DNA of 64,000 nt from a virus: IMG/VR virus record IMGVR_UViG_3300035698_034576, positions 1 to 64,000 of that record; one strand, written 5' to 3'. A program made the translations under genes and the position numbers. Position 1 is the stretch's first letter, and each line of letters starts with the position of its first letter. Of the stretch, positions 6,211 through 64,000 are shown in pieces. The notes under the pieces are model-generated. The model had not been told where the DNA came from. It was given only the letters and a program-made list of their open reading frames with translations, and made no database searches.

Positions 6211-6243
6211 AGATGAACAAATAATTAATATCTAAAAGTTGTT

Positions 6244-6312
6244 ATGAAAATAGTAAAAAAAATTAGAAAAGAGATCAGGGAGTTTACCCACATGGGCGAA
6301 CTCCCTGACTAG
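6244..6312 (+). CDS. dnaE: 22-aa mini-ORF carrying the start of the DnaE catalytic motif
   Basis: MKIVKKIRKEIREFTHMGELPD* (TAG 6310-6312); not in ORF track. Confidence 0.7.
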   Translation: MKIVKKIRKEIREFTHMGELPD

Positions 6313-11294: not shown

Positions 11295-12803
11295 ATGGCA
11301 AAAATAAAAGAAGATAAAACTAAAGGCTTAGATAAACTGTCTATATCCTTAGTTAAGATAAATAAAGCTTATGGGGAGGGTAGTATTTTAAAAGCAAAAG
11401 GGGATGGTCCAGTTAAAGGTATAGAAAGAATCCCTATGGAATTCCCAGGGATTAATAGGGTTCTCGGGGAGGGTCTTCCAAAAGGTAGAATAATTGAGAT
11501 ATTTGGACCTGAATCAGCTTCTAAAACTACTTTCTGCATTCATGCTATTGCCGCGGCTCAACAAGTTACTGGATTGCCCGCTGCATTTATTGATGCAGAA
11601 CATTCCATGAACCTTGATTATGCTGAAAAACTTGGGGTTGACTTGGAGCATTTATATTTGTCTCAGCCAGGAAGTGGGGAAGAAGCCTTAGAGACCCTAG
11701 ATTTCCTATTAGAGGCTGGATTGAGTTTGATAGTAGTAGATTCTGTTGCAGCACTAGTTCCTAAGGCTGAAATAGATGGAGAAATGGGTGATTCAAAAAT
11801 GGGCCTTCATGCAAGGCTAATGTCTCAAGCCATGAGAAAAATAACAGCTAGAGTTGAAAGAAGTAAAACCGTTGTTATTTTTACAAATCAGCTTCGCGAC
11901 AAGATCGGTTGCATTGGACAAGATACCGAAATAAACTGGTTGAAAAACAATCCCCTTGAGTACGAAAAGATTGATTTGAAAAGCTTTTTTAAAGAAGCCT
12001 TTTCTCTTGAAATAGAAGATCTGGAGGTCAATGAAAAAAAGAGTGTTGAGGCTTTTCAGATTTTTATAGAGAGTTTTAATCACAACCTTGTAAAAAAAGA
12101 ACCTGGGCTAGTTTCCCAGCTAATTAGAAAGAAAGATGCTACAAAATACCAAGTCTCGATTAAGGACAATTCTTTCGATTGTTCTGGGGACCACTTAATT
12201 TTTGTGAAAACCCACTTAGCTAAAGAGGGAACATACTTAAGAGTTGAAGACTTATATTTAAGTAAAAACAAATCTTATCTCTTTTTGACAGAAGACTTGG
12301 TATTTGAAAAAGGATCAATTCATAAAACGGATAAAAAAATAAAAATTTATGATGTTGAGGTAAGAGGGAATCACAATTATTTTTCAAACGGAATTTTATC
12401 TCATAACACAATATTTGGAAATCCGGAAACAACTACCGGAGGAAATGCTCTTAAATTTTATTCGTCAATAAGACTGGATGTGAGGAAATCTACAAAAATA
12501 AAAAATGGCGATGATATAATTGGAGAGGAGATTCGCCTAAAAGCTGTAAAAAATAAAACGTATCCTCCCTTTAGACATACAGTAATGAGACTAATCTATG
12601 GCAAAGGATATTCAATACCAAGTGATATTTTGAATGAAAGTCTTTTATTAGGTATTGTGGAAAAAGCTGGAAGTTGGTTTAATTATGGTGAAACAAAATT
12701 AGGCCAAGGGCAGGATAATGTTGTTTCTATTTTGACTGATAACCCAGAGCTATTAGAGGAATTAAGAACAAAGATAAATCAAGCTTATGTGGAAAATAAA
12801 TAA
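11295..12803 (+). CDS. recA: RecA recombinase with intein
   Basis: GRIIEIFGPES, FIDAEH, VDSVAAL, ARLMSQAMRK, GGNALKFY; ATG at 11295. Confidence 0.97.
   Translation: MAKIKEDKTKGLDKLSISLVKINKAYGEGSILKAKGDGPVKGIERIPMEFPGINRVLGEGLPKGRIIEIFGPESASKTTFCIHAIAAAQQVTGLPAAFIDAEHSMNLDYAEKLGVDLEHLYLSQPGSGEEALETLDFLLEAGLSLIVVDSVAALVPKAEIDGEMGDSKMGLHARLMSQAMRKITARVERSKTVVIFTNQLRDKIGCIGQDTEINWLKNNPLEYEKIDLKSFFKEAFSLEIEDLEVNEKKSVEAFQIFIESFNHNLVKKEPGLVSQLIRKKDATKYQVSIKDNSFDCSGDHLIFVKTHLAKEGTYLRVEDLYLSKNKSYLFLTEDLVFEKGSIHKTDKKIKIYDVEVRGNHNYFSNGILSHNTIFGNPETTTGGNALKFYSSIRLDVRKSTKIKNGDDIIGEEIRLKAVKNKTYPPFRHTVMRLIYGKGYSIPSDILNESLLLGIVEKAGSWFNYGETKLGQGQDNVVSILTDNPELLEELRTKINQAYVENK
11910..12407 (+). mobile_element. 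mini-intein (166 aa) in RecA
   Basis: KIG|CIGQDT...CSGDH...YDVEV...SHN|TIFGNPETT. Confidence 0.92.
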
Positions 12804-28983: not shown

Positions 28984-29010
28984 AAGTATACCATTCCAAA
29001 ATAAAAAACT

Positions 29011-29412
29011 ATGTTAAAAATATTAGAAGAGGTTGCGGCTCGCAGGTTAAAAGAGAATTCCCCAAATAAAGTTATTCAGCTTTCAAAATTCCTAATGGAT
29101 AGGGCAATGGAAGACCTTAATAAAAATATGAGCTTAGGAGGGACTCAGTCTTCAGTTGAGTTGAGCAATTTGAAGTTAAACTTTTTTGATGAGGTTTGGG
29201 AAATAAAAAATAGGGCCTATCGTGACGACACATCAGATGATGATGTTCAAGAAGTGCTGTATGAATTTGCTCACAAAGACTTGCCCCTCCCACTGTCCGA
29301 AATAGTCAACCATAAGCCTCCCCGACCACTTGAATGCTGGATAAAAGCAAGAGAGTTGGACTGTGCAGAGTATATCCAGTGGCATTTAGAGAAAGAGAAA
29401 GACAATAAATAA
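29011..29412 (+). CDS. hypothetical protein
   Basis: ORF. Confidence 0.65.
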   Translation: MLKILEEVAARRLKENSPNKVIQLSKFLMDRAMEDLNKNMSLGGTQSSVELSNLKLNFFDEVWEIKNRAYRDDTSDDDVQEVLYEFAHKDLPLPLSEIVNHKPPRPLECWIKARELDCAEYIQWHLEKEKDNK

Positions 29413-29421
29413 TCCAGCAAT

Positions 29422-29670
29422 ATGAAAACAGAATTTTTCCCAATGAGCCACAGGCCGGACGTTGACCCAAACGACCACGAAAATACTCAAACCGTAATAA
29501 TCTTCGATGAAGATTTATTATATTATGACTTCGGGTTCTTCCATTTTGATGATGATGAATGGTATATTTTAGGCGGGATGGCATTTGAGATGAAGTGCTG
29601 GTGTTATGTTCCCAAGCCAATAAATATTAGCTTAAAATGGGCACTTGTCAAACATTTTGGGTATAGATAA
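29422..29670 (+). CDS. DUF551-like small protein
   Basis: FFPMSHRP...W...WCYVPKP. Confidence 0.5.
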   Translation: MKTEFFPMSHRPDVDPNDHENTQTVIIFDEDLLYYDFGFFHFDDDEWYILGGMAFEMKCWCYVPKPINISLKWALVKHFGYR

Positions 29671-29702
29671 TCAAATTACGTTGAATTTTAACCCTTAAAA
29701 CA

Positions 29703-29894
29703 ATGGAAACGCAACAAGAAAATTATGCTGACGACTTTGATGACATTGAGGATGATTTTGATGAAGAAGATTATTTGGAATGGACACACGAAGAAGAACA
29801 GCAGATCGCCCTAAACTGCGAATGCGGAGCTTAGGGTCTTGGCAAATATAGAGCAGTTTATCACGTTGCTGACTGCTGCTGTGGAGCTGAATAA
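29703..29894 (+). pseudogene. acidic, Cys-rich small protein with in-frame TAG at 29832
   Basis: METQQENYADDFDD...NCECGA*GLGKYRAVYHVADCCCGAE*. Confidence 0.6.
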
Positions 29895-29979
29895 ACACTT
29901 AAATAAGAAATCTGCTAATTAACAAAAACGGTAAAATACTTAAATAGCGCTAACGTAAATAATAAACACAGTAAAAGAC

Positions 29980-30258
29980 ATGAAAGAGAAAATAATACAA
30001 ATAAGTAAAGACCTTGAAAAAGGAAGCTCTCTTTGTGGAGGGGATTTTGAGAACGAATTGAAAGCGACTTATGTGAACCTTAGACAAGTTTCCTCCGTTT
30101 CAGGAAGGGAAAAGTTGACTCTACCCTTATCCGGAAATTTTGTTGGATACTACTCTATTGTGAGCATGGGGAATGGTGATAATTTTTACATTGGAGAAAA
30201 AGAAGGGATTGAGCTGATCAGCATTATTGCTCCAACTGAGCACTCTTCTAACATTTAG
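29980..30258 (+). CDS. hypothetical protein
   Basis: ORF. Confidence 0.6.
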   Translation: MKEKIIQISKDLEKGSSLCGGDFENELKATYVNLRQVSSVSGREKLTLPLSGNFVGYYSIVSMGNGDNFYIGEKEGIELISIIAPTEHSSNI

Positions 30259-30354
30259 GTTTAAAAAGAAATTTATTTAAAAGTTAAGAAAAATTTTTTA
30301 TATAGTAAATTTTGAGTATCTTTACAGCAGATTAACAATTTAAAAATTTGTGAG

Positions 30355-30528
30355 ATGGAAAAAGACTTAAAGAAAAAACCTGAAAAAGAGAGACTTTCCT
30401 ACTTTTGCTCTGCTTGCGATGGTACAACTTATGATGTGGACTATTGTGATAATCCAAGCTGCCCAAACCAACCTTGCTGTGGAAAGCCAAAAAAAGATTG
30501 TCACTGCTACGAAAAAGATCCATCATGA
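30355..30528 (+). CDS. 57-aa Cys-rich protein
   Basis: 8 Cys; directly after class I promoter variant and leader repeat. Confidence 0.7.
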   Translation: MEKDLKKKPEKERLSYFCSACDGTTYDVDYCDNPSCPNQPCCGKPKKDCHCYEKDPS

Positions 30529-32017
30529 AGTACCTACTGACGACAATAATCCTGATTTCAATCTTTCTACTAGCGGCCTATTCTCATGATAGTCACACGA
30601 AAGAGATGAAGAGGTTTGACGAGATAGAGTACAAACTAGATAAATTCATCAACGCTGATTCCTTGAGAACAGAGCACTACCGCACTTGTACTTTTTCAAG
30701 TTGGGAAAATGTAGGAATTGGCTTTGATGGATATTATTATGACATAAACTACAGAAATCTTCATGGAAGAGAATAAAAAACAAATTATGCCAAAAGAATT
30801 AACATTTGACGAGTGGTTTTCTTTGAATGAGGAATTGCTCTGGGTAAGAGCTGGAGATTCCGGAGCTACTGGTGAACTTGATTTTGACTGGGAAGACTTT
30901 ATCTGGGATGAATGGGAAAAGTATCAAAATAAAAAAACAATGAGGAAAGTGTTTATAATAGGAGACACACATCAAACTGACATTGACAAATTGTTAAAAA
31001 ATAATCCAGATGTTGAAATAGTCAGGATTTATAGTCCGAGTAATGTTCCATTAAACGAAACATTTACCTTAACAAGAATACCTGATTTTGAAACTCCTAT
31101 AATTCTCAAACAAAATCATAAAAGACCATATAAATTTCATAAATAAAAACTACAATGAATACACTTAAAGCAGTACCTAATGAAAATTGGTTTAAAGTAG
31201 AGCAAGGATTTGTTCTCGTTAGTGATGAGAAACCTAATCCTAAAATCATAGGTAATAAAAAGATAATGTGTCTTTATCCCCCTGAATTTTCTGATCAGAT
31301 TTATAAGACTTTAGTTGGGTTAGCTAAAAATAAATATCAGTTGAAGGAGTTTTCAGCTTTTGATAGCTATATCAAAGAGGAGGGCTATTGGAAAAATGAT
31401 TTTGATTTATGGTGGGATATAGAGAATCACTTCATTTTCTGGAGATCAGGGGAGCTTAATAATGATATAATATCATGCTTCAAAAAGATTGAATAAGGAC
31501 ACTAATCAAGCTTCCCCAGCAGTTTGGTTTGCTGAGGAACTACATTTAAACATCAATCCAATAAAATGAAAGATAAAAAATACGGTAAACCTTACACTAT
31601 ACATGGAATCAGTTACCACTTTCACCCCGATTTGGACTATGACAAAGCAGAAGCCTACTTAAAGGAAATAGGTGAATGGGATTATGTAAGTACCCACGGA
31701 TTCAGTGTGGATGGATGGAGCATTATAGCATCAGCAAACAGCATTTGGGATGAACGAAATAAAAATTCAACAAAATGAAAGATAAAAAATATGATTTGAA
31801 CCTATATCAAGCCCTTGAAATAGTGGTGAAAGGTGGGGCTGTCAGAGGGGATGACTTTGCAGACGGAATCTTCTTGAAGCTAAATTCCTATGGACAATTG
31901 ATAACTATGCATGCTGGTAGAACATATCTTGAAAATGTCAATGTATTTCTTAGAGGCATGGCCAAACAGAAGTTCAGAAGTCTATCTGCTATAGAAATAA
32001 AGGACCTAGTCCCTTAA
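30525..32017 (+). other. run of small hypothetical CDSs (30525-30776, 30763-31146, 31155-31496, 31566-31778, 31775-32017)
   Basis: Tightly packed + strand ORFs with A-rich leaders; first has an N-terminal hydrophobic segment. Confidence 0.65.
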
Positions 32018-32075
32018 AAATATTTTTTAGATGAGCTAGGTCTTCCTATCTTTACTGTGAACTAAAAATAAAAGC

Positions 32076-32420
32076 ATGAAAAAAATACCGCAATTTCTAA
32101 TTCAAAAAATAATGATGGGATTAATCATCTTCTTATGGATTGGTTTTTTATTGAGTATGGTTGTAGGGAGAGAGGCTTTATGCTCTGATAAAGGATTTTC
32201 AATGAAAGCAAGGGTAGAGGTTGTTCAATCAAACCCAGACCTTAGGGTTCAAATAGTTCAATCAAACCCCGACTGGAGAATAAAGATTGTTGAGAATGAT
32301 CCATTTGAGTGTGGAGAATGGAGGATTGTCACTTCTCTTCCAGATATTAGGATTCAATATGTAACATCAAATCCTGACATTCGAGTCAAATTTGTAAGTG
32401 CAAACCCAGGAAAAGAATAA
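32076..32420 (+). CDS. secreted/anchored repeat protein resembling the 7_1-knot family
   Basis: TM/signal, then repeats V..SNPD.RV and CGEWRIV. Confidence 0.6.
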   Translation: MKKIPQFLIQKIMMGLIIFLWIGFLLSMVVGREALCSDKGFSMKARVEVVQSNPDLRVQIVQSNPDWRIKIVENDPFECGEWRIVTSLPDIRIQYVTSNPDIRVKFVSANPGKE

Positions 32421-32570
32421 ATATGTTTGTTTCAATTTTGATTGTAGGAATTTGTCTATTCGGAATATTCAAAATGTTCTCTAAAAGTAAAAAAGATTAT
32501 TAAGCACAAACCTTAAAAAAGACCACAGAGGCAATGCTTTATGAGCCGTTGTTGTGTGGCGTTATTTACT

Positions 32571-32807
32571 ATGGAAGATTTAATAACACTACTAGCTAAA
32601 GGGAAACAGGTTACTGATGAGCATATTAAAGTTGAATTATATGAGATCTGCGATAGAGTGCATAGTAGGTGCGATAGCGAATGCCCTGTTTTCCGACTTA
32701 ATGGGAATAAAGTGCCTGATACTGCAAAAGATTTCAATAAAAATAGAGGCTGCGACTGCTTTAAAAACGGAGCTAATATGCTCGATTTTATTCGTAATGC
32801 CACATAA
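32571..32807 (+). CDS. cassette gene 1, Cys-rich hypothetical protein
   Basis: MEDLITLL...CDRVH..C..ECP...GCDCFKNG; stop codon lies inside CACATAAC. Confidence 0.75.
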   Translation: MEDLITLLAKGKQVTDEHIKVELYEICDRVHSRCDSECPVFRLNGNKVPDTAKDFNKNRGCDCFKNGANMLDFIRNAT

Positions 32808-32872
32808 CGGAATAGGACTTGTTATGGTTTCGTGCTTTGTTAATCAGATTATTAAACTAAAAATAAAATAAA

Positions 32873-33082
32873 ATGGAATACAATTTTAAATCAAGACCAA
32901 CAGGGAAATCATTTTCAGAAATGATTCAATTAAAATTTAATATTTTAAAAGGATTAAATTGTGCTGTTGTAACGCTTAACCCAGAAAAAACCAAAAGGGA
33001 CTTTAAATACATGACAGGGTCATCGTTAAAATTAGACCTAAGAAAAGATACTAAAGATGTGTACAACGCTTTTTTAGCATGA
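32873..33082 (+). CDS. cassette gene 2, hypothetical protein
   Basis: MEYNFKSRPTGKS...; stop directly before CCATAAC. Confidence 0.7.
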   Translation: MEYNFKSRPTGKSFSEMIQLKFNILKGLNCAVVTLNPEKTKRDFKYMTGSSLKLDLRKDTKDVYNAFLA

Positions 33083-33083
33083 A

Positions 33084-33175
33084 CCATAACGGTTGAGGCT
33101 AAGAGCAATTGCCTTGTAAATACTACTCAATTAATCAGAAATGCTGATGGCAATTGCTTTTAGCCTTTGTTATAA
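33084..33175. repeat. attC-like imperfect palindrome (92 nt)
   Basis: CCATAAC-GGTTG-AGGCTAAGAGCAATTGCC / 35-nt loop / GGCAATTGCTTTTAGCCT-TT-GTTATAA; inner arms match 17/18. Confidence 0.8.
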
Positions 33176-33187
33176 AACGTTTTTATT

Positions 33188-33358
33188 ATGGAACTTACAG
33201 ACAGAGAATTAGCCCTAAGATGGTGGAATAGAAAACCCATTCAAGAAAGAACTGAACTTGCAAAACAAGCAAAAATTCCAGTGGAAAATAGAGATTATAA
33301 TACATTGACAGGTAATGAAATTGAATGGATTTGGCGTAACCAACCGTACAACTCTTAA
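33188..33358 (+). CDS. cassette gene 3, 56-aa hypothetical protein
   Basis: MELTDRELALRWWN...LTGNEIEWIWRNQPYNS*; not in ORF track. Confidence 0.7.
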   Translation: MELTDRELALRWWNRKPIQERTELAKQAKIPVENRDYNTLTGNEIEWIWRNQPYNS

Positions 33359-33401
33359 ATGTTTTATAACGTAAGGATATACGCAACTCTAAATTAATAA
33401 A

Positions 33402-33812
33402 ATGAAACTACAAATAAAAATTCTCAAAAACACTCCTTTTGATAAAGCAGGGACAGTCTTAAATATTTACGACTTTAGGCTGAAGTATTCTTATTTTGCA
33501 ACTAAAGACGCTACGGATGATGAAGTGTTTGATCACATACTTAGCTTTAATGCTGAACCTGTAGGTACGGTGGATAAATGGTTTGAAGCTGTACGCGAAA
33601 ATGGTAAACTTCCCTTAGAAGTAATTATCAACGGAGTGTTGTACGTGAAGCAGCTCGATGGTTCGTATTATTCATTCTTAGTTGATTCAGAGATAAAATC
33701 TTGTGATAAAATCGGAGTGCATAGTATAACTTATGTTGAAAGTCTTTTTAAAAACACTAAGCACAAAAAAGAAGTTCTTTATTGTACTTCAAACATATAT
33801 AAAAAACTGTAG
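33402..33812 (+). CDS. hypothetical protein
   Basis: ORF. Confidence 0.65.
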   Translation: MKLQIKILKNTPFDKAGTVLNIYDFRLKYSYFATKDATDDEVFDHILSFNAEPVGTVDKWFEAVRENGKLPLEVIINGVLYVKQLDGSYYSFLVDSEIKSCDKIGVHSITYVESLFKNTKHKKEVLYCTSNIYKKL

Positions 33813-33813
33813 C

Positions 33814-34066
33814 ATGAAAAAAAATAAATGCAGAAATCGTAGCAGACAGTATTAACCTTAAAGGAGATAGAATTACTTCTTATCTGCTTACTTACCCAAG
33901 ATTTATCCATGGTGAAGTTTTAACCCACAGAATGTTTGGTCGAAACTCTGCATCAAGTAGAGCAATACCATTTAAGAAAATGGTTAAAATGGTAGAAGAA
34001 GATCCTTTTATTCCTTCTCTCAACAAACACAATTGCAGCAAAAAGAGCTCTTTCCTTGATTTTTGA
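33814..34066 (+). pseudogene. thyX: truncated FAD-dependent thymidylate synthase
   Basis: Frame from 33824: IVADSI...YPRFIHGEVLTHRMFGRNSASSRAIP...DPFIP; A8 run puts ATG 33814 out of frame; similarity lost near 34015. Confidence 0.8.
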
Positions 34067-34316
34067 CAATCAAACACAAGATGAACAGTCTTCGGAATCA
34101 ACAAGAGAGCAGAATGGGATAGGATTCACCGGAACTGATGCTAACATTCTATCAAGCTTTTGTAAGCAACTTTCCGAAAGAGGCCACTTGTCTTCCAAGC
34201 AAATGGAAATTCTTTTAAAAAAAATGCCAAAGTACTGGAAGCAGATCCTTTCCTTGAGCGATGTTGAGAAGCTAAATTCAATGGTAGTAAATTACATTCC
34301 CCAAGAAACCGCATAA
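34014..34316 (+). pseudogene. 5'-truncated paralog of ORF 633-998
   Basis: LLSTNTIAAKRALSLIFDNQTQDEQ...KYWKQIL with no ATG of its own. Confidence 0.7.
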
Positions 34317-34329
34317 AAAAATCAATACA

Positions 34330-34458
34330 ATGAATAATAGAAAAAGTATCAATGATTCCCCAAGATTCTTTAGAGTAAAAAAGGGACCAAAAGCAGGTGT
34401 CTATGTAAACAGTTTGGAAAACCGTCGACTAGATAGAGTTGGCAAAAAAAGTAAATAG
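34330..34458 (+). CDS. 42-aa peptide consisting only of the shared tag
   Basis: VKKGPKAGVYVNSLENRRLDRVGKK*. Confidence 0.6.
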   Translation: MNNRKSINDSPRFFRVKKGPKAGVYVNSLENRRLDRVGKKSK

Positions 34459-34702
34459 TTTTGAAAAATATAAAAAACTCTCCTTCTTTGGAGAAAAAAG
34501 TAAGAAAAAAAGAAGCTTCAAAAATTATAAAGATGGCAAAGAACTTGCCTTCCTCTGTTGAAGAAAAGGAGAGAGTGGAGGATCCTTTGATAGAAAGGAG
34601 TGATAACCTAAGTGTTTTTCTACAAGCTCACCAGAAGAGGCAATCGAATCAATTGTTACAGCCCTTTTAAGACTTACTAAAGATAAGCTCTAAAATCTTT
34701 GC

Positions 34703-34744
34703 AATCCCATCCCGTCAGATAGACTAAGGGTGGGATTTTTTTTT
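34703..34744 (+). terminator. intrinsic terminator
   Basis: AATCCCA / TGGGATT stem plus T run. Confidence 0.75.
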
Positions 34745-34870
34745 GCTTAGAGATAGTTTTGAGTAATAATTTTAAAAAAAAGTGAAAAAAAACACTACAA
34801 AAGTTTTTTATATAAGAAATTTTGCTATCTTTACAGTGTAATCAGTGTTAACAATTTAAAAATTTGTACC

Positions 34871-36803
34871 ATGAACATTTCAGAGACTTTATTAAAAGAA
34901 GTAAAAGAGAGCAATATGTATATAATGTTCTGCGACTACGATTCACTTGATGAGGTGTCACTTGAAAAAGCAAATGCAATAAACATAGGATCTTTTGAGC
35001 AAGGGTTAATCCCCCTGGGAACTTTTTTGAAGTGTCCAAAGAAAAAAGAAGTGACTTTAGAGTGGATAATGAACAAAGTCAACAGAGACAGTTATTTTGT
35101 CAACCTAAGCCAAATAATTAAAAAGGCTTTGAATATAGACGGACTGTCAGTTTACCCCACCTCTTATGGAGTAGGTTTTTTCCGGCTGTTTGGAATGAAT
35201 AAAAAAGAAGTTGACAGAGTTCATAATTTCTTCAAAGAAAATGGTATTGAATACCGAAATGAGCTTTCCGATGCAAGATATGTATATCGATTCAAAGTAT
35301 CAAAATCAAGGGATAATATAGAAAAATTAAAAAATATTAAAAAAAGTAGCTAAAAGTTTTTTATATAAGAAATTTTGTTATCTTTACAGTGTAATCAATG
35401 TTAATAATTTAAAAGTTTGTACCATGAAAAATTATTCAGTGGAATCAACAGAAAAAGCCCTGTTAAGAAAAGGCTTTCAACACAATGGTGGAAATAGTGG
35501 AATTGAATATTTCGGAAATGAAGAGCACTTTAATGAGGCGAATGTGTGCTCGCATTTCATTTATCACCACAATAACGGCCACTCTACCATAATGGCAACA
35601 GTTGAGAATTCGTTCAAAAATGGAAAGAGCTTTGCCACTATAAATGGAATTCACCCTGTTGAATGGTTTGAATCAGTTAAGAATGACATAAGCTAAAATT
35701 AAAGCCATGAAGACAAAAATCGAAATGATGCAAAAAGAGTTGACTGAACGCATGCTGATGCCATTGTTTGAAATACCAGCTATAAATATGGAAGATGGGA
35801 GTGAAAATTGGATATTGTTCGATGTATCCATTAGTCGAAATTCTATCTTTGCTCAACATATTGCCTTATCCTCAAAAGAGGAAAAGAGCAAAAAAATAGC
35901 TTACAAATCCATTCCCATTGACACGGATTTCTGTTTAGACCATCACTTAGAGCAATTGTATGAGCTTTGTATAGATGGCATAATTGAAGGAGACCTGTAC
36001 AGACTGCAATAAAACTTAAAAACCATGAAAAACATAACCACAACTGATAGCTATTCCAAGCAGTTAATATTAAAAGCCCATTTCAATCTTACTAATAAAG
36101 CCGGGAGACCAGAATATTCTCCTACTTCAACGGAAATTCAATCTGAAATTGATAAGATTATAAGTGGAAACAAAAGAGCTGACAGAGATTCAATAGCTGA
36201 TTTTTTCCAAACTGATGATTTGACAACCTATAGAATTTTGCAAAATTTAAGCTGGGGATTCTTTTTAAACCATTTTGGAGAAAATGCTAAAGCCTATTGG
36301 GATAAAGCTCACCCATTCTTTTATCCTGGAAGTGCTTCAAAGGACTACCATTCATTTAGCCTTTTGTTTATTTTGGACCATTTTGATTTATTTTCAAAAT
36401 CCCAATTTTGGACCAGCGCGGGCTGGAAGTTTAACCCAAACATAAAAAAAATGGTTTGGACTTATAATTCCGGCTATTCAAACATCACCATATAAAATTC
36501 AAGACAATGAAAACAAAAATTCCTAAATCAGTAAGAGACTCTATTGAAGAAATAAACGAAATGTTGCCAAAGATTCATGAAGCAGATGAATTTCCTTGTA
36601 GCTACTTTGGAGGCACCTGGCCAATTTATACAGGAATGACAAAGCCGATTGAAATTAAAAATCAGTTTGTTTATATCCGAGCCAACTCCGCTCATGGGAA
36701 TATTGGGCCGGAAAGATTTAACTGTAATGATGAATATCAAGTTGATTCATTGAAATTCCACCTTAAACACATCAAGCAGTCTTATAAAAAAGTTTTGAAG
36801 TAG
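34871..36803 (+). other. early small-gene cluster (34871-35353, 35424-35696, 35707-36012, 36025-36495, 36507-36803)
   Basis: ORFs behind class I promoters at about 34800 and 35353. Confidence 0.75.
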
Positions 36804-36860
36804 CAAATTAAAGTAATTTAGAAAAGGGTTAGTTTCAATATCAATCTTACTAAATTTTGT

Positions 36861-36874
36861 TATATTTATTAAAA
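36861..36874 (+). promoter_or_regulatory. putative late promoter (class III)
   Basis: TATATTTA(A/T)TAAA, also at 40236, 50954, 55739, 58518, 60167, ahead of structural, tagged or lysis genes. Confidence 0.65.
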
Positions 36875-36883
36875 ATAATTGAA

Positions 36884-37168
36884 ATGATTTATAAAAACGA
36901 AAGCATTCTAAAATCTTTTGGGATTGATATTGAAAAAGGAGGAAAGAAAACTGGTGTTTATGCTGACACCCACGAAAACAGAAAAGCTGGAAAAGTTGGA
37001 CAAAGTTACTTTAAAGAAAAAGAAGCCTCAAAAACTTCAACAAAGGGCCAAGATGAAGCATTTAAGCTTATCAACAATCTTCGCTCTAGTACTTTTAAAA
37101 ATCTAAATGATGATGAGCTGTTTGAATTTAGAAAACAGATGGCAAATTATCTTGATCTGAAAATGTAA
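36884..37168 (+). CDS. tagged putative head-packaged protein
   Basis: ILKSFGIDIEKGGKKTGVYADTHENRKAGKVGQSY. Confidence 0.75.
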   Translation: MIYKNESILKSFGIDIEKGGKKTGVYADTHENRKAGKVGQSYFKEKEASKTSTKGQDEAFKLINNLRSSTFKNLNDDELFEFRKQMANYLDLKM

Positions 37169-45667: not shown

Positions 45668-48244
45668 ATGAAAACTGATTTAATTAGTAAGAGCAAAGGA
45701 CTGGGAATAGCTAGATCATTTGAAAATGATATTGAGAAGGCTAAAGCTTTCCCTCCAGGGACAATTAAAAATTATAATGGCAAGAGATATATTAAAGTAT
45801 CAGATGCAAAAGGTTTGGAATGGAAAGACCAATGGAAAATGATCCATAGTAAAAAACAAATAGAGGAAACTCTTGAAGAGTTTGGTAATGTTCCTGGACT
45901 CTCTGGTAAACTTTCTGGATTGCCTGCTGATGCTGAATCAAAACCAAGCGCTCCCTCTGTTGAAAAAAAGGAAACCTCAGGAAATGATTCAAGTAATGAT
46001 CCAGTTATAGGCACTTTAAATAAGGTATCTACATCAAAAGATCATTCTCCTTTGACGAGACTTGAAAATATGTACAGCTATGGGTTGGAAGATCCAATGA
46101 CTTTAGCTACATTTTCTGGAGCCCATTATTCTGAAGTTCAGAAATTTTTAGCAAATAAAAAAGAAACTGAAATTAAATCTGCTTTTACAGAAGTTGAAAA
46201 AGAAAGGATTGCCGCAGCGACAAGAAAGAAAAGACTTTCTCTTTATGCGGAACTAGCTGGCATTTCTGTTCATGATAGATGGAGAACGTATGATACCATT
46301 CTTGAAAACACTATGGAGGGCAAGTTCAAATCTATGATTGCATTTGGATCAGGTGGAGTAGGAAAAGCTCAGCCTTTGTACAGTAAGGTATTAACTCCTG
46401 AAGGCTTTGTAAAAATGGGGGAATTAAAAGTTGGAGATGAAGTTGTAACTCCTAAAGGGAGTTTATCTAAAATCTCAGATATTTATCCACAAGGCAAACG
46501 GGCTGTTTATGAATTAACCATGGAGGATAACACTAAAATTAGATCTGATGTGGAACATTTATGGAAAGTTCTAGACACAGAGGATGATTTTAGTGAAAAA
46601 GTATTATCCCTGGAAGACATAGTGGAAAAAGGCTTAAAAACTGAAAATGGCTGGAGATTTGGAATTCCATTTATTGATAAGCCTTTTGGAGCTCCAAAAA
46701 ATATTGATTTGCCGGTTAACCCTTGGCTTATTGGATGGCTACTTGGAAATGGTTGCTTTTCAAACAATCTTTCCTTTGATATTAATCCATTAGATAAAGA
46801 ATTCCTTTTAAGCAAAATTGAAGAGTATCTTCCAAAAAATTTAAAGATCTCTAAGAAAATAAGCCCCACCAAGTTCAGTATCATTGGGAATGATAAATTA
46901 GATGAAAAAGAATTAGAGCTAGCAATCAATCAGCTGTCCCTGCCTGAAAGAGAAAACTGTTCTGCATTTATTCCTGGGGTATACAAAAGATCTTCTGTTG
47001 AACAGAAGCTCCATATTATACAGGGCTTAATGGATTCAGCTGGATATATAGATCAAGCTGGAATGCTAAAATTTTCCTCTCCATATAAGATATTGGCTCA
47101 GGATTTTTATGATTTAGTTAAATCATTTGGAAGAATGGCTTATATTGAAGAAAAGACCGTATCATTTTTTGGAACTGATTCAAGAGAAAATTGGATAGTA
47201 TCTTTTGATTTAGGAGAAGGGTACCTTCCTTATTCCTCCCCGGCAAGATCTAATGAATACCGTCCTAAGGATAAAGAAGGATCCATGCCAATAGTGGATA
47301 TTTCGTTTATAGCCATAGAAGACACCCAATGTATTTCAATAGAAGATGCAGATAAAATGTATATCACAGATGGTTACATTCAAACCCATAATACATGGAA
47401 CATGCAATTAGCAACTAAGAAATTTGTTGTTAATAGGGAAACAGGAATTATTATGAGAAAAGAGGATTTCAAGAAAACTTTTGGTCCAGATGCTACTTGG
47501 GATGATTCTCACATTAAAACAGTTCCAAAAAATGATTACCGGGAACTGCGCCAGTTTGATCCTACAAAAAAGTTTAGTGCTTCAGATTACGAATATGTAG
47601 TTATAGGGGGTTCAATATCCCCAGTTATGACATATTCAAGTATCTATCAACATAACAAGAAGATTATTGTTTTTGATGATATTGATAAGATCCTTAAGAA
47701 TAGAGAGGGGCTTGATGTTCTTAAAGGGGCTTTGGATGGAGAAATAAAAGATATTTCATGGGGTACTTCAACAACTCCTAAGGATATGCTAGGAGTTGAT
47801 GTTCCTAAAACCTTTAAGTTTGAAGGCAGGGCTATATTTATAACCAACCTAACCAATGAACAACTTAAGACTCCAGAGCTACAACCTATCACTCAGTCTA
47901 GAGCTGAGCCTGTGGATTTAACAATGACAAAAGAGGAAACTATTCAAAAGCTACAGACTTTGGTTAAGACTATGGAAGTTAAAGATGCGGCTGGAGAGGT
48001 TATTGATGCTTCCCCTGAGGACAAGCAACAGGCCTTAGACTATATGATTGAAATGAAGGATATAATTCATGCAGGATACTTCAATGCTAGAAAGCTAGGA
48101 GCGCTAACAAAACTTCTTAAGATTTCCAAAAATGATACCGAACTGTTTAGAAAAATGGCTTCATCTTCTCTACAGGTCCCTACAGGCGAGCAAATACCTG
48201 AGGATTGGATTTTCAATTATGACGATGATGAAGGAATAGTTTAA
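45668..48244 (+). CDS. P-loop (AAA-like) ATPase with class 3 intein
   Basis: Walker A GSGGVGK|T, Walker B IVFDD, IFITN; N-terminal IEKAKAFPPGT. Confidence 0.85.
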   Translation: MKTDLISKSKGLGIARSFENDIEKAKAFPPGTIKNYNGKRYIKVSDAKGLEWKDQWKMIHSKKQIEETLEEFGNVPGLSGKLSGLPADAESKPSAPSVEKKETSGNDSSNDPVIGTLNKVSTSKDHSPLTRLENMYSYGLEDPMTLATFSGAHYSEVQKFLANKKETEIKSAFTEVEKERIAAATRKKRLSLYAELAGISVHDRWRTYDTILENTMEGKFKSMIAFGSGGVGKAQPLYSKVLTPEGFVKMGELKVGDEVVTPKGSLSKISDIYPQGKRAVYELTMEDNTKIRSDVEHLWKVLDTEDDFSEKVLSLEDIVEKGLKTENGWRFGIPFIDKPFGAPKNIDLPVNPWLIGWLLGNGCFSNNLSFDINPLDKEFLLSKIEEYLPKNLKISKKISPTKFSIIGNDKLDEKELELAINQLSLPERENCSAFIPGVYKRSSVEQKLHIIQGLMDSAGYIDQAGMLKFSSPYKILAQDFYDLVKSFGRMAYIEEKTVSFFGTDSRENWIVSFDLGEGYLPYSSPARSNEYRPKDKEGSMPIVDISFIAIEDTQCISIEDADKMYITDGYIQTHNTWNMQLATKKFVVNRETGIIMRKEDFKKTFGPDATWDDSHIKTVPKNDYRELRQFDPTKKFSASDYEYVVIGGSISPVMTYSSIYQHNKKIIVFDDIDKILKNREGLDVLKGALDGEIKDISWGTSTTPKDMLGVDVPKTFKFEGRAIFITNLTNEQLKTPELQPITQSRAEPVDLTMTKEETIQKLQTLVKTMEVKDAAGEVIDASPEDKQQALDYMIEMKDIIHAGYFNARKLGALTKLLKISKNDTELFRKMASSSLQVPTGEQIPEDWIFNYDDDEGIV
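46367..47392 (+). mobile_element. class 3 intein (342 aa) with LAGLIDADG endonuclease
   Basis: Starts AQP; EHLW, TQCISI, QTHN give the WCT triad; GWLLGNG and GLMDSAG. Confidence 0.9.
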
Positions 48245-52308: not shown

Positions 52309-54414
52309 ATGTTTTCAAAAGCAGAAATACAAGCTCTGTTAAATGTAATAAACAAGAATAGTTTGTTCTTTATTGCTTCCCAACTTGGGAAGCATTTGTT
52401 ATTACCGGACGATGTTTCTTTTTTAAAAAAGGAAGGAATAGATCTTTCTAAAATAATCACAAAACATAGTCCGCTAGAACAAGCCTATTTGTTTGGCCAT
52501 ATATCTACTCTTCTGGAAAATGATGTTGTCAAGAAGATGACCTTCAAAGACTTCACTAAATACTTGACTAGTGATAAATGGATGCCTCTTATACAAAAAG
52601 AAAAATATGCTCTCACAGCAGTTGAAAACTTTGCATACTATGAAATTCGTGGACTTGGAACAAGATACAATCAAAGGCTTGGTCATTTAGTTTCTGAAGT
52701 AGATAAAAAAACAAAAGAGGCGAGAGAGTTAAGTGTTAAAAAGACGGCAAAAGAGGCTATTGTAAGAAGGGAGAATAAAAAGTGGCTAGCTTCAGAACTC
52801 AGATCAATAACAGAGGATTGGGGAAGAGATTGGGGAAGAGCTTCTGATTTTATAATGACCACAGCTTACTCAAAGGGTTCTGTTGAAGCTGCAAAAAAGA
52901 GGTCTGGAGAACAAGCAAAGGTTTGGATGTCTGTTTATCCGCAAGCATGTAAGCATTGTATCAAAGCCTATTTAACAGATGGAATAGGATCAAGGCCAAG
53001 AGTTTTTCTTGTAACGGATCTTGAGAGGAATGGGACAAATATCGGAAGAAAGACTGCAGAAGCCTTACCCGTTGTTCCTCCATACCATCCACATTGTTTT
53101 ACAAGTGGTAGGACTCCTGTTATGACAGAAGAGGGCTATAAATTTATAAACAAAATAAAAATAGGGGATTTAGTTTTAACTCATAAAGGAAGATTCAGAA
53201 AAGTTAGTCAATTGCATTTTAATAAAATAAAAAAAATTGAGATAGAAAATAAATATTTCAATATTACTTATAAAATAAAGCAATTTGACAAAACCGATAA
53301 ATTTGTTACTATTTGTAAGATAACTCCGGATCATCCTTTTTTATCAAATAATAAGTGGGTGTCAGCTAAAAAACTGAAGATCAATGATACTTTATCTTTA
53401 TTACAAAGAAAATGTTTTAATCCTAAATGTGAAAACTATACTTCTATATCTTCCAAATTTGAAGAAAATCAATATTGCTCCATAACTTGCGGAAATTCTC
53501 GCTCAGCTAATAAACAATGGGAAAATTACTCAGAGGATAAAAAAGCATCAATATCTAAAAATATCAGTGAAGGAAATTTAAGAAGATATAAATTAACATC
53601 AAAAGAATACAGACAAAAATTAACTGAAAATGGACGTATAGCTCATGAAAAAGTAATGTCTACATGGTCAGATGAAAAGAAAAAAGAAGTTATTCTTAAA
53701 ATAAGAAATTCTAATAAAAAAACATGGTCTTCTTTTACTGATAAAGTAAAAACAAAAAAAGCTTCTAAAGCCAGGAAAAAAAATTCTTCTCATGGTAGAT
53801 CAGGAAATTCTCCATTAGAAATTACTTTTTCAAAAATTTTAAGTAAATTTGATCAGAATTTTACTAATAATTTTAAAATAGAAACAAAGAGAACAAACCC
53901 TAATAATTCAAATCAATCTATTTATAGATGGCTGGATTTTTATGACCCTAGATTAAATATAGTTTTTGAAGTAGACAGTGATTATTGGCACTCTGATAAA
54001 GAAAGAGATAGGATAAGAGATAATGAAATTTTTAATCTGATAGGGGCGGATATATTTCATATAAAAGAAGATGAATTTAAAGATTTAATAAAGTTAGAGG
54101 AGAAGGTTGGAAGATTATTATCTAATCATAATGGAGACTACTCTTTCAAAGATGTTAAAATTGTGGATATAGAAGAAGTTTTCTATAAAGGCAATGGAGA
54201 AGGAATGGTTTACACTTATAATCTTTCAGTGGAAGAAGATGAGAGTTATATTGTAAAAGGGATCGCTGTACATAATTGCCGATGTGATCCAAACTATTTT
54301 CACGACGGATCTGAGTGGGACGAAGAAGAAAAAAGGTTTAAAAAACCTAAATATGTATCAAAATACAAACCATTAGTCAAAGTTACTATTAACGGAAAAG
54401 AATATGAAGGATAA
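52309..54414 (+). CDS. MuF/SPP1 gp7-like head morphogenesis protein with intein
   Basis: ACKHC...PPYHPH|CRC. Confidence 0.85.
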   Translation: MFSKAEIQALLNVINKNSLFFIASQLGKHLLLPDDVSFLKKEGIDLSKIITKHSPLEQAYLFGHISTLLENDVVKKMTFKDFTKYLTSDKWMPLIQKEKYALTAVENFAYYEIRGLGTRYNQRLGHLVSEVDKKTKEARELSVKKTAKEAIVRRENKKWLASELRSITEDWGRDWGRASDFIMTTAYSKGSVEAAKKRSGEQAKVWMSVYPQACKHCIKAYLTDGIGSRPRVFLVTDLERNGTNIGRKTAEALPVVPPYHPHCFTSGRTPVMTEEGYKFINKIKIGDLVLTHKGRFRKVSQLHFNKIKKIEIENKYFNITYKIKQFDKTDKFVTICKITPDHPFLSNNKWVSAKKLKINDTLSLLQRKCFNPKCENYTSISSKFEENQYCSITCGNSRSANKQWENYSEDKKASISKNISEGNLRRYKLTSKEYRQKLTENGRIAHEKVMSTWSDEKKKEVILKIRNSNKKTWSSFTDKVKTKKASKARKKNSSHGRSGNSPLEITFSKILSKFDQNFTNNFKIETKRTNPNNSNQSIYRWLDFYDPRLNIVFEVDSDYWHSDKERDRIRDNEIFNLIGADIFHIKEDEFKDLIKLEEKVGRLLSNHNGDYSFKDVKIVDIEEVFYKGNGEGMVYTYNLSVEEDESYIVKGIAVHNCRCDPNYFHDGSEWDEEEKRFKKPKYVSKYKPLVKVTINGKEYEG
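53095..54276 (+). mobile_element. intein (394 aa) with DUF559/Vsr-like endonuclease
   Basis: HPH|CFTS...TPDHPF...LDFY...EVDSDYWH...YNLSVEEDESY...VHN|CRC. Confidence 0.92.
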
Positions 54415-62988: not shown

Positions 62989-64000
62989 GTGAACTACCCA
63001 CCCACGCCAGAGGCGATATGTTGGGCTTCAAGGGTCAGTACTCCACGTAACCGTGGCAGTTCGCCTTGATTTTTCCTGTCAGTTCCTGACAAGTAATTTT
63101 TTAAAGCAAAAGATTTTATGTTATTAGCAGCCAAAATATCTCTATCGTGTGTAACTCCACAAGATTTGCAAGTCCAAGTTCTATCGGACAATTTCAAGTC
63201 TTTGCTGATTACTCCACAAGAGCAAGTTTTTGATGATGGAGCAAAACGTCCTATTCTAAGAATGTTTTTGCCGTACCAATCAGCTTTGTATTCTAACATA
63301 GTTACAAAAGTTGACCAGCTTACATCTGAAATTGCTTGTGCTAAACAATGATTTTTAACCATGTTTTTTACTGTCAAGGTTTCCAAGCAAATCGTTTGGT
63401 TCTCACGAATTAGCTTAGTAGAAGTTTTATGCAAAAAATCTTTACGTTTATTTGCTACTTTTTCATGTAGCAAGGCAAGACGTTGTTTAGTGCGCTTACC
63501 TTTGGTCTTTGAATATTTTCGTTGTACATATTTTAGTTTGCTTTGTGCTTTTCGCAGATATTTAGGGTTTTCAAATACCTCTTCCTCAGAAGTGATAGCG
63601 AAGTCTTTAATTCCTAAATCTATTCCAATTGTTGTACTTTCCTTAATAGGGGCTTTAATTGGTATCTCCTCATTTGTACTAACCAATATAGAAGCGAAAT
63701 ACTTACCAGTTGGGGTAACACTTATAGTTGCACTTTTAATAATTCCTTTAATTGGGCGATGCAAAATGATTTCAATGCCCTCTTTAAACTTAGGGATTAT
63801 CAACAAGTCATTTTCAACTATTACATTTTGCGGCACTGAAAAGGATTGTCCACCTTTATGCTTTGATTTGAACTTTGGAAAACCAGCCCCTTTAAAGAAT
63901 TTCTTAAAAGCAATCTCCATATTTTGGATAGATTGCTGTAAAGATTGGCTATTTACTTCTTTCAACCACTCACACTCTTTTTTAAGTTCTGGAAGCTGTT
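62989..64000 (-). mobile_element. IS200/IS605-family element, right end in window
   Basis: Minus-strand end ...GGGTGGGTAGTTCAC at 62989, directly after tnpB. Confidence 0.85.
62994..64000 (-). CDS. tnpB: TnpB RNA-guided endonuclease (5' part beyond window)
   Basis: IGIDLG, ICLETL, SSKTCSCG...WTCKSCG..HDRD..AA.NI; frame open to window edge. Confidence 0.95.
   Translation of the reverse strand, partial: QLPELKKECEWLKEVNSQSLQQSIQNMEIAFKKFFKGAGFPKFKSKHKGGQSFSVPQNVIVENDLLIIPKFKEGIEIILHRPIKGIIKSATISVTPTGKYFASILVSTNEEIPIKAPIKESTTIGIDLGIKDFAITSEEEVFENPKYLRKAQSKLKYVQRKYSKTKGKRTKQRLALLHEKVANKRKDFLHKTSTKLIRENQTICLETLTVKNMVKNHCLAQAISDVSWSTFVTMLEYKADWYGKNILRIGRFAPSSKTCSCGVISKDLKLSDRTWTCKSCGVTHDRDILAANNIKSFALKNYLSGTDRKNQGELPRLRGVLTLEAQHIASGVGG

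Follow-up and report, generated by a model that had tools for sequence, protein, structure and literature searches.

The acquisition of small accessory genes by lytic phages has mostly been ascribed to illegitimate or short-homology recombination. Xer-dependent modules are associated with dif and pdif sites, and the CTX phage integrates through a folded single strand. Promoter/stem-loop (PeSL) cassettes of T4-type phages were reportedly described by Arbiol in 2010. Such cassettes of T4-type phages are also treated in the available text of Comeau 2014 (PMC4122927). In integrons, the R-box consensus of attC is RYYYAAC/GTTRRRY, and the bottom strand of attC, which is the recombined one, is enriched in G:T mispairs, as given in the available part of the source (PMC5027507). 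Integrase-less clusters of attC sites (CALINs) have been published for phages before. According to the available text of that study, a survey of 10,705 phage genomes yielded 17 CALINs, IntI1 recombined five of the six sites tested, and recombination by IntI1 is given for one predicted attC of Polaribacter phage P12002L (Qi et al. 2023, PMC9892861).

Here, one region of the window (the whole 64,000-nt stretch of phage DNA that was analysed) is compared with these systems. The region is probably a short array of three one-gene cassettes, decayed in part, that belongs to a Flavobacteriales-type integron-like system of bacteria and phages, for which we infer a circle, a cleavage position and an enzyme. 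Its features are the following.

32530–32547, plus strand: remnant of the 3' half of the junction hairpin (GGCAATGCTTTATGAGCC), which aligns with 33149–33166 and the leader of gene 3
32551–32564, plus strand: left arm of cassette 1 (GTTGTGTGGCGTTA), divided as GTTGT-GTGG-CGT-TA
32571–32807, plus strand: gene 1, encoding a 78-aa Cys-rich protein, function unassigned
32795–32808, plus strand: right arm of cassette 1 (TAATGCCACATAAC), TA-ATG-CCAC-ATAAC, overlapping the last codons and the stop of gene 1
32809–32820, plus strand: 12-nt spacer at the junction of cassettes 1 and 2 (GGAATAGGACTT), without an inner hairpin
32821–32835, plus strand: left arm of cassette 2 (GTTATGGTTTCGTGC), GTTAT-GGTT-[T]-CGT-GC, with one bulged T
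32873–33082, plus strand: gene 2, encoding a 69-aa protein, function unassigned
33077–33090, plus strand: right arm of cassette 2 (GCATGAACCATAAC), GC-ATG-AACC-ATAAC, with the stop codon TGA inside
33091–33168, plus strand: junction hairpin, with the inner stem 33096–33113 / 33149–33166 and a loop of 35 nt, predicted to be part of the gene 3 cassette
33169–33182, plus strand: left arm of cassette 3 (GTTATAAAACGTTT), GTTAT-AAAA-CGT-TT
33188–33358, plus strand: gene 3, encoding a 56-aa Trp-rich protein, function unassigned
33357–33370, plus strand: right arm of cassette 3 (AAATGTTTTATAAC), AA-ATG-TTTT-ATAAC, the 3' edge of the array, followed by neither a hairpin nor a GTT core

An earlier, sequence-only reading had put each of the three genes inside its own complementary pair, with a full 92-nt hairpin between genes 2 and 3 and a related half-hairpin before gene 1. 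All of these are present at these positions in the letters of the window. Pair 1 has 12 Watson-Crick pairs among its 14 positions, and both mismatches are G·T. Pair 2 has 13 Watson-Crick pairs and one G·T besides the bulged T, and in pair 3 the position left over from 13/14 Watson-Crick pairs is again G·T. The arms of one cassette are complementary over 14 nt, and those of neighbouring cassettes are not complementary. All three units fit a single template, GTTRT-N4-(C/A)GT-NN for the left arm and NN-AT(G/T)-N4'-AYAAC for the right arm. The variable bases pair across the gene, and G (left)·T (right) is fixed at position 11.

These pairs are far above chance. For each of the 103 plus-strand genes of the 83-kb contig, the 60 nt upstream were paired with the stop region, G·T being counted as a pair: genes 1 and 3 alone reach 14/14, and gene 2 reaches 13 ungapped. 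Non-cognate pairings reach 14 in 2 of 1000 cases. On the plus strand of the contig, ATG-N4-ATAAC occurs six times, three of which are the right arms, and GTTRT-N4-5-CGT occurs four times, three of which are the left arms. In six template units taken together from four sources, pairing is seen at 35 of the 36 variable positions, a result matched by just 2 of 720 right-arm permutations. Related phage sequence of 374 kb contains 65 arm pairs (52 distinct) with 38 different N4 cores, against 7–16 pairs in five shuffles.

The 92-nt hairpin is confirmed as well. The inner stem of 18 nt is 94% complementary and contains no bulged base, the one bulged T lying in the left arm of gene 2. ATAAC (33086–33090) and GTTAT (33169–33173) close the hairpin. 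The unpaired spacers beside the inner stem (5 nt 5', 2 nt 3') form an asymmetric internal loop. The fold of the DNA has −23.3 kcal/mol (z = −5.9), and none of 200 shuffles is as stable.

The half-hairpin at 32530–32547 is the truncated 5' edge of the array, from which the 5' half of the hairpin and the upstream AAC core are missing; no left half matching it is seen in the window with up to three mismatches allowed. Its relation to the 3' half of the hairpin is borne out by the alignment, and direct similarity is limited to a stretch of ~48 nt upstream of genes 1 and 3. The 12-nt junction at 32809–32820 is a collapsed site. The fold of 32785–32845 is no better than shuffles (z = 0.03), and a similar junction of 13 nt is seen in G002. 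Beyond gene 3, the fold of 33345–33405 is no better than shuffles, either. The inner hairpin is thus unfoldable at two of the four junctions in the window, and at most cassettes 2 and 3 look mobilisable now.

The likeness to integron cassettes and CALINs is considerable. In both, imperfect hairpins closed by AAC...GTT link units of one gene each. A hairpin base of AAC and GTT triplets is seen here and in other arrays. The start of a cassette pairs with its own far end and not with the neighbour, which is the footprint of a circular form. The G:T mispairs are biased towards one strand: of the non-Watson-Crick pairs in the 52 distinct phage arm pairs, 45 are G·T/T·G and 7 A·C/C·A, and at position 11 there is G·T in 36 arm pairs and A·C in one. 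This one-sided enrichment corresponds to that of the bottom strand of attC. As in the phage CALINs of the available text of Qi et al. (PMC9892861), no integrase is found in the phage. The junctions of P12002L are alike as well. The same architecture lies between methyltransferase genes of that phage, e.g., CTAAC-GG..GGCTAA..TTAGCC-ATT-GTTAGGC; the published P12002L_attC1/2 may be other hairpins.

The differences from integrons concern the site, the polarity and the enzyme. The outer stem here, with its fixed position-11 G·T, is 14 bp long and cassette-specific. ATAAC/GTTAT takes the place of RYYYAAC/GTTRRRY as the core: the R boxes CCATAAC and GTTATAA agree with the consensus at 5/7 positions each, short of the full consensus, and most units have T at position 5 of the GTT box. 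These features speak for the separate site family that had been raised as a possibility from the sequence. Unlike in integrons, the phage gene lies on the G·T strand with the hairpin 5' of it, and the linked bacterial recombinase is devoid of positions 177–240 of the integron-integrase model. Rfam gave sub-threshold chance matches only for 31500–34500. A scan of 29000–37000 for sigma-70 promoters and terminators gave counts no higher than shuffles.

PeSLs of T4-type phages are alike in that small conserved stem-loops flank small accessory genes and mark swap points in the variable regions of virulent phages. Unlike the PeSLs, which are direct repeats for homologous recombination, the arms here are inverted complements varying by unit, and in bacteria their site family is linked to a tyrosine recombinase. 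Near-identical direct repeats of the PeSL type are not seen flanking the genes; the ~48-nt similarity upstream of genes 1 and 3 is the only one. With the Xer modules, the system shares a likely Xer-family enzyme and a folded single-stranded site as the likely substrate. A 28-bp dif-like site with a 6-bp spacer is absent, and the spacers between the arms are 2 to ~120 nt here. In the openly accessible articles searched, 14-bp cognate arms, a fixed G·T, reversed phage polarity or a Flavobacteriales Xer-like platform were not found described.

Homologues of genes 2 and 3 in unrelated phages are bracketed by ends of the same family. The gene 2 homologue L082 (72% identity) has cognate arms of another core, AGGG/CCCT against GGTT/AACC in the window, which is a compensatory change. 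The gene 3 homologue L101 (60% aa identity) has GTGC/GCAC arms and its own, different upstream hairpin. Another gene 2 homologue, L083 (60% identity), is without arms, as are the gene 3 homologue L100 and the AAAA-type locus L126. Flanking complementarity above the non-cognate null is seen in 0/64 loci of gene 1 homologues, and none of them shares the neighbours in the window. These 64 assessable loci come from 79 fetched, of which six were left out (L008, L022, L043, L044, L057, and L064; mostly metagenome or second contig copies), then five short or partial ones (L027, L076, and L079–L081) and four more for scant flank.

The AAAA/TTTT arm pair of gene 3 brackets at least seven unrelated gene kinds. 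The idea that the pairs travel with the gene needs correction: the AAAA/TTTT pair is shared by unrelated genes, and the 64 assessed homologue loci of gene 1 are not bracketed. Copies of gene 3 at 84–93% identity are present in five viral contigs. These five copies are identical through ATAACG and unrelated beyond. The four of these contigs whose whole records were compared with the window share almost nothing else with it, and the carriers of the cassettes are otherwise nearly unrelated phages. Six different upstream right arms are followed by one and the same hairpin with the AAAA left arm; this hairpin precedes gene 3 in G002 and G005, and other genes with the same left arm.

IMG/VR was also searched blindly with the left arm of gene 3 alone, which yielded 14 loci. 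The right-arm core lies 183–382 nt downstream in 11 of them. One of the remainder is cut by the contig end and two are without the core, so that the cognate right arm is present at 11 of the 13 assessable loci. As background, this core has 5 matches in 1,177,320 nt. Other phage contigs contain longer arrays, with more than 10 of these units, in which the arm types are mixed and pair across the gene. The covariation across the gene, the boundaries and the shared arrays support the earlier view that the genes are discrete cassettes with attC-like ends.

No close relative of the phage appeared in IMG/VR scans with single proteins (two flanking genes and the portal protein), and GenBank phages gave nothing useful by blastn (30000–36000; 33077–33380) or by tblastn (genes 1 and 3). 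The phage is present as contigs only in four salt-lake sequencing runs at a depth of 2–4; no joints are listed for them, no piece spans the array, and no recombination event is seen, so that these runs are uninformative about excision. None of the runs listed as containing the phage is an RNA run.

As the sequence-only reading had noted for the integrase, a tyrosine recombinase (PF00589) is not matched in this phage contig, nor in any of five related phage records, two of which are complete. The array of the window would accordingly be an orphan array, and the link to an enzyme is adjacency in other genomes only. The search suggested by that reading, empty in the phages, did find a XerA-like gene beside arrays in Flavobacteriales. 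There, the same site family is present in arrays directly downstream of a XerA/IntI-like recombinase. This holds at 7/7 loci, those of a 345-aa recombinase and six orthologues (at least 60% identity). The 345-aa protein passes NF040815 with 233 bits (cut-off 220) and gives 211 bits in two stretches on TIGR02249 (cut-off 265). As positions 177–240 of the integron-integrase model are missing from it, it is not a classical IntI.

The orthologue loci contain 3–10 arm pairs, against shuffle means of 0.5–2.1, and three of four controls beside more distant Xer-like genes are without arm pairs; the scans cover these seven orthologue and four control loci, with simple shuffles as the null. A looser form of the template, GTTRN-N4-NGT-NN / NN-ATN-N4'-NYAAC with G·T at position 11, is shared by the three units of the window and the bacterial arrays. 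Some bacterial arm types are letter-identical to phage ones, e.g., GTTATAGGGCGTTT/AAATGCCCTATAAC. The host order is probably Flavobacteriales, judging from related cassettes in MAG bins and from phage P12002L.

Of the 30 bacterial arm pairs that have G·T or A·C at position 11, 29 have their G·T strand opposite to the recombinase gene (manual count). This strand is antisense to the cassette gene in 16/17 units whose longest ORF covers at least 80% of the unit. These 16 units have the polarity of attC, with the gene on the top strand and attC 3' of it, and the phage units do not. The phage cassettes are built backwards compared with the bacterial ones: they have the gene on the G·T strand, preceded by the hairpin.

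Based on these comparisons, a cassette consists, in order, of an optional long imperfect hairpin, a left arm, a short leader with the ORF, and a right arm. When the ends are joined, as in an excised circle, the right arm, the hairpin and the left arm would fold on the G·T strand into one attC-like site, in which an asymmetric internal loop separates the outer stem from an inner stem with its loop. The exchange would take place in the conserved AAC of the G·T strand, presumably at ATAA|C; the comparative boundaries place it within the conserved ATAACG and resolve it no finer. Integration at G|TT on the plus strand had been proposed before, to be checked by gain or loss of units exactly there in related phages. 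The boundaries are sharp in several unrelated phages and give ATAAC(G) on the plus strand, that is, G|TT on the minus strand, and the proposed position needs correction. With the exchange point at the 5' side of the hairpin (plus strand), the hairpin would travel with the downstream gene. The predicted cassettes are 32808–33089 for gene 2 and 33090–33369 for gene 3, and cassette 1 would have lost its 5' edge. The catalysis would be due to a host XerA/IntI-like tyrosine recombinase, a host enzyme being proposed because no tyrosine recombinase was found in the examined part of the phage.

Every phage G·T is on the gene-sense strand, and U-rich tails like TTTGTTAT follow the inner stems. Unrelated genes are preceded by a conserved leader, situated between the left arm and the ATG, and a promoter-like motif found before several other genes of this phage has TTGTTAT as its core. 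Such observations could be explained if the arms and hairpins acted in mRNA, as terminators, RNase III-type sites or 5'-3' brackets, and the genes were shuffled by homologous recombination at the linkers in a PeSL-like manner. The phages without a detected tyrosine recombinase would agree with this, and the available text of a published study reports PeSL-mediated shuffling (PMC4122927). This explanation is nevertheless unlikely. In the 16 bacterial units mentioned above, the mRNA would have an A·C mismatch in place of the G·T. In the long arrays with mixed arm types, pairing spans the gene rather than lying inside the junction element, and the position directly downstream of a tyrosine recombinase is common to all the orthologue loci. 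In most relatives the genes occur without arms, which indicates that the arms are dispensable for expression.

The attC-like architecture and the AAC/GTT cores would also fit classical integron cassettes (a CALIN) served by an IntI with the extra domain and exchanged at G|TT on the plus strand, and phage CALINs are published with sites mostly recombined by IntI1, in the available text (Qi et al. 2023, PMC9892861). Such an origin is rather improbable here. The cut-off of TIGR02249 is passed by none of 3 MAGs and none of 301 sampled genomes of the host order, in a scan without a positive control. The agreement of 5/7 positions in each R box argues against it, as do the location of the hairpin before the gene and the sequence that follows the right arm, which differs in all five gene 3 copies. 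Genes 1 and 3, for which 46 and 56 homologues were found in metagenomes, are small genes of a kind typical of phages. The attribution to IntI-type recombinases in the sequence-only reading needs correction, given these genomes and a XerA-like associated enzyme in likely host genomes.

The arms could be inverted repeats for a DNA invertase, with the small genes as invertible on/off segments, since the same 14-bp site flanks each gene in inverted orientation and the need for an identical crossover would explain the matching arms. This is very improbable, because inversion through the core would give A·C at position 11, contrary to the 36 G·T against one A·C among 52 pairs. The three genes here and the genes of the AAAA-type loci are, moreover, all in the same direction as their neighbours. 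Chance matches within AT-rich DNA, although single 12/14 inverted matches are common (58 inverted pairs in the 1.3-kb region; 12/14 reached by 9/600 non-cognate pairings of the flanks of gene 1), have a negligible probability and are refuted by the genome-wide flank, motif-count, permutation, blind left-arm and related-phage tests.

An IS200/IS605 element was rejected as a candidate: the sole TnpB is 30 kb off (62994–64163, minus strand) and the cassettes carry unrelated small ORFs.

For the array of integron-like cassettes, the wider meaning lies in its ends. Gene-sized units with defined ends recur in otherwise unrelated phages, and these ends adjoin a dedicated recombinase in the probable host order. 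Together, these facts point to site-specific cassette exchange without a phage-borne enzyme. They bear on the origin of cassettes and attC sites, and on the descent of IntI from Xer-like enzymes. It may be that virulent Flavobacteriales phages keep their own mirror-image pool of cassettes, with the recombination site of the host arrays, the gene on the other strand and the hairpin before it, moved during infection by a host Xer-like enzyme without the integron-specific domain. If so, there would be a route of site-specific gene exchange between unrelated lytic phages. The system would then be a living example of the Xer-to-integron transition, and phage genes bracketed by hairpins would be a possible source of cassettes. 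Tools for finding integrons that require the extra domain of IntI would call such systems orphan attC clusters. The reversed polarity of the gene offers a simple test to distinguish cassettes of a phage pool from those of a bacterial pool.

The proteins of the three cassettes are small, and neither Pfam nor PHROG has a family match for that of gene 1. The start of gene 1 is the ATG at 32571, not 32541, based on the alignment of 31 homologues. This alignment contains invariant Cys and His positions. An arm type nearly identical to the left arm of cassette 1 is found in L115.

The phage record in IMG/VR is 83,151 nt long and is estimated to be 75% complete; the window is its first 64 kb. The G+C content is 33%, and the + strand carries nearly all genes. 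They include genes for a portal protein, an NAD-dependent ligase, a RecA with an intein (window 11295–12803), and an SNF2 helicase. A 701-aa protein with Hint/intein domains is encoded at 52309–54414. Among the few genes on the − strand is one for a TnpB-type protein of 389 aa (OrfB_IS605, Cas12f1-like TNB, and HTH_OrfB_IS605 domains), from window position 62994 to 64000 and on to contig position 64163 (994–2163 of locus L001). The runs containing this phage are salt-lake metagenomes. Three small genes adjoin one another at 32.5–33.4 kb, and none of them matches a Pfam or PHROG family.

Small genes enclosed by complementary arms (window positions)
32571–32807, + strand, gene 1, 78 aa
32873–33082, + strand, gene 2, 69 aa
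33188–33358, + strand, gene 3, 56 aa

The three complementary pairs reported for these genes in the sequence-only reading were all recovered at their positions. So was the hairpin, with an inner stem at 33096–33113/33149–33166 closed by ATAAC and GTTAT, and the related half-hairpin before gene 1, which is a copy of its 3′ half. The hairpin folds at −23.3 kcal/mol (z = −5.9), far better than shuffles. For the 12-nt stretch joining genes 1 and 2, and for the sequence beyond gene 3, folding is no better than in shuffles. Because single 12/14 inverted matches are frequent in this DNA, the whole arrangement was tested: the 60 nt upstream of each of the 103 + strand genes were compared with its stop-codon region, with G·T allowed. 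Pairing of 14/14 is seen only in genes 1 and 3; with its bulge left out, gene 2 gives 13. Non-cognate pairings reach 14 in only 2 of 1000 cases. The template read from the arms is GTTRT-N4-CGT-NN (left) and NN-ATG-N4′-ATAAC (right). Three of the four left motifs and three of the six right motifs on the + strand of the whole contig are cassette arms. The observation made from the sequence alone is real. Apart from these arms, GCGCTAACGTAAATAA at 29940–29960 resembles the sequence following the right arm of gene 3 and one in another compared contig, G001. It looks like an orphan right end (CTAACGTAA), and no partner arm was seen for it.

The pairing is retained in homologues. A gene-2 homologue in the viral contig L082 (72% amino acid identity) has the arms GTTATAGGGCGTTT/AAATGCCCTATAAC, in which the template is kept and the core is changed, while a second homologue (L083, 60%) is without arms. 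Five IMG/VR contigs carry gene 3 at 84–93% amino acid identity, each copy with its two arms. Four of the carriers, compared as whole records, have at most four other genes in common with the window, and these are weakly similar. A gene-3 homologue with 60% identity, on a contig of a Flavobacterium MAG (L101), has the arms GTTATGTGCCGTTA/TAATGGCACATAAC and, directly upstream, its own long hairpin, whose sequence is unlike that of the window. The gene-3 homologue of a Lishizhenia MAG contig (L100, 76%) has no arms. Direct repeats AAATCCACYAAACA...ACTCATTGTG flank it in place of inverted arms (around 5900–6260), which suggests a different system in that phage, resembling the promoter/stem-loop linkers (PeSL) between swapped genes of T4-type phages. 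In six template units, pairing holds at 35 of the 36 variable positions; when the right arms are permuted, only 2 of 720 orders match this. Position 11, the fixed pair of the arms, is G (left) opposite T (right) in 7/7 tabulated units.

In a blind test, IMG/VR was searched with 18 nt spanning only the left arm of gene 3. The right-arm core ATGTTTTATAA lies 183–382 nt downstream of the left arm in 11 of the 14 loci found, against a background of 5 matches to this 11-mer in 1.18 Mb. One locus ends 22 nt past the left arm, and two are without the core, one of them an unrelated GC-rich match. Between arms of the gene-3 type, at least seven unrelated kinds of genes are enclosed. The pairs had been taken to belong to individual genes; instead, these facts indicate that each arm pair represents a type of site. 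Likewise, the common arms GTTAGCATTA/TAATGCTAAC enclose two unrelated genes of G001 and G002. Longer arrays are seen in L115 (13 units in 13 kb) and L116 (at least 8 units), each unit with its own matched arms and with strong hairpins between units, starting with ATAACGG and ending with GTTAT. In 374 kb of array-type sequence there are 65 arm pairs (52 distinct, 38 different cores) versus 7–16 in shuffles. Among the 52, position 11 is G·T in 36 and A·C in 1. Junction hairpins with differing stems in different phages have the loop CGTTTTAATG in common, which would not be expected if such sites were recognised by structure alone.

Junction hairpins with the loop CGTTTTAATG
L104 (Polaribacter phage P12002L), 29974–30077
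L104, 30849–30964
G002, 48080–48130
L115, 7709–7748

Five copies of gene 3 are identical through ATAACG and unrelated beyond it. The hairpin type of the window is found upstream of the AAAA left arm, that of cassette 3, in six contigs, each time after a different right arm, and the TTTT right arm is followed by differing sequence in at least 10 contexts. The hairpin therefore belongs with the downstream gene, and exchange is placed within ATAAC(G), on the 5′ flank of the hairpin. An exchange at G|TT on the + strand, as proposed from the sequence alone, is replaced by AA|C on that strand. A cassette would thus be composed of hairpin, left arm, gene, and right arm. The gene 2 cassette would correspond to 32808–33089 and the gene 3 cassette to 33090–33369. 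In cassette 1 the 5′ half of the hairpin is lost, and cassette 2 has a 12-nt spacer where the hairpin would stand. At most two of the window's cassettes still look mobilisable.

As had been noted for the window, no integrase was found in this phage: the Phage_integrase family has no match in the contig or in any of five related records (two complete), versus 14/14 control genomes matched. One cassette-bearing contig, the same 34,064-nt contig as G005, is binned in a Crocinitomicaceae MAG, another sits in a Flavobacterium MAG, and P12002L is a cultured relative of the architecture. On these grounds, the host order is likely to be Flavobacteriales. No protein in three MAGs or in 301 sampled Flavobacteriales genomes passes the integron-integrase model TIGR02249, in a search run without a positive control. 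In the Flavobacterium MAG, the best partial match comes from a 345-aa protein, which aligns to the model in two stretches only (2–176 and 241–313) and passes NF040815 ("site-specific tyrosine recombinase/integron integrase") with 233 bits (cut-off 220).

Directly downstream of this recombinase gene is an array with the same arm template. In a protein search of 201 Flavobacteriales genomes, 53 have a match at E ≤ 1e-60, and six of these have full-length orthologues with at least 60% identity. Arrays lie 3′ of the gene at all seven loci (3–10 arm pairs versus shuffle means of 0.5–2.1). Among four control loci with more distant homologues, three are without arm pairs and the fourth has 2 versus a mean of 1.75. 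Some bacterial arm pairs are letter for letter those of phages; GTTATAGGGCGTTT/AAATGCCCTATAAC of the phage gene-2 homologue is also found in the bacterial locus L137. Of the 30 bacterial pairs whose position 11 is G·T or A·C, 29 have their G·T strand opposite to the recombinase gene, and the cassette genes are opposite to the G·T strand in 16 of 17 units (ORF at least 80% of the unit). The phage cassettes have the same site as the bacterial ones with the gene turned round. At 9912–10040 of L137, the ATAAC of the last cassette adjoins an AT-rich stretch just past the recombinase stop codon, with the inverted repeat GGCGAAACAAACTTTCG/CGAAAGTTTGTTTCGC, which makes it a candidate for an attI-like site in the bacterial system.

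What the window contains is a small orphan cassette array of the integron/CALIN kind (attC clusters without an integrase). Cassettes moved by a recombinase are probably the explanation, in which the enzyme, the circular form, and the precise cut are inferred. On the phage data alone, the leading alternative is that the arms and hairpins work at the RNA level, as every G·T in phages is on the sense strand and the stems carry U-rich tails. It is weakened because the same fixed pair in bacteria would be an A·C mismatch in mRNA, and because the arms pair across genes, not inside a junction. An RNA role is thus improbable, and keeps some weight because the hairpins may additionally serve as terminators. 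Classical IntI integrons are unlikely, since no IntI was found in the MAGs and sampled genomes (again without a positive control), the R boxes match at only 5/7 positions, and the polarity is reversed. A DNA invertase flipping each gene conflicts with the constant polarity seen at position 11.

In Qi et al. 2023 (PMC9892861), 10,705 phage genomes were screened and 17 CALINs are reported, one of them in P12002L with two methyltransferase genes, and IntI1 recombines 5/6 sites tested. Junctions of P12002L, for example CTAAC-GGCTAC-GGCTAAACGG...CCGTTTTAGCC-ATT-GTTAGGC, have the same architecture as those of the window, and are not equated here with attC1/attC2 of that study. Its inner-stem ends GGCTAA/TTAGCC are those of the window's hairpin, and cognate arms flank one methyltransferase gene. 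In the literature searched, no description was found of 14-bp cognate arms, the fixed G·T, reversed polarity in phages, or the Xer-like platform.

The motif TTTTGTTATATTTAWTAAAAAT recurs at window positions 36857, 40232, and 55735 and contig position 68843 (also 35375), lying 27–49 nt before several genes, that of the portal protein among them, and looks like a phage promoter. Its core TTGTTAT is common to the cassette left arms. Between the truncated hairpin and the phrog_6462 gene, at 32424–32504, is an ORF of 26 codons (MFVSILIVGICLFGIFKMFSKSKKDY, read by eye), whose product may be a small membrane peptide.
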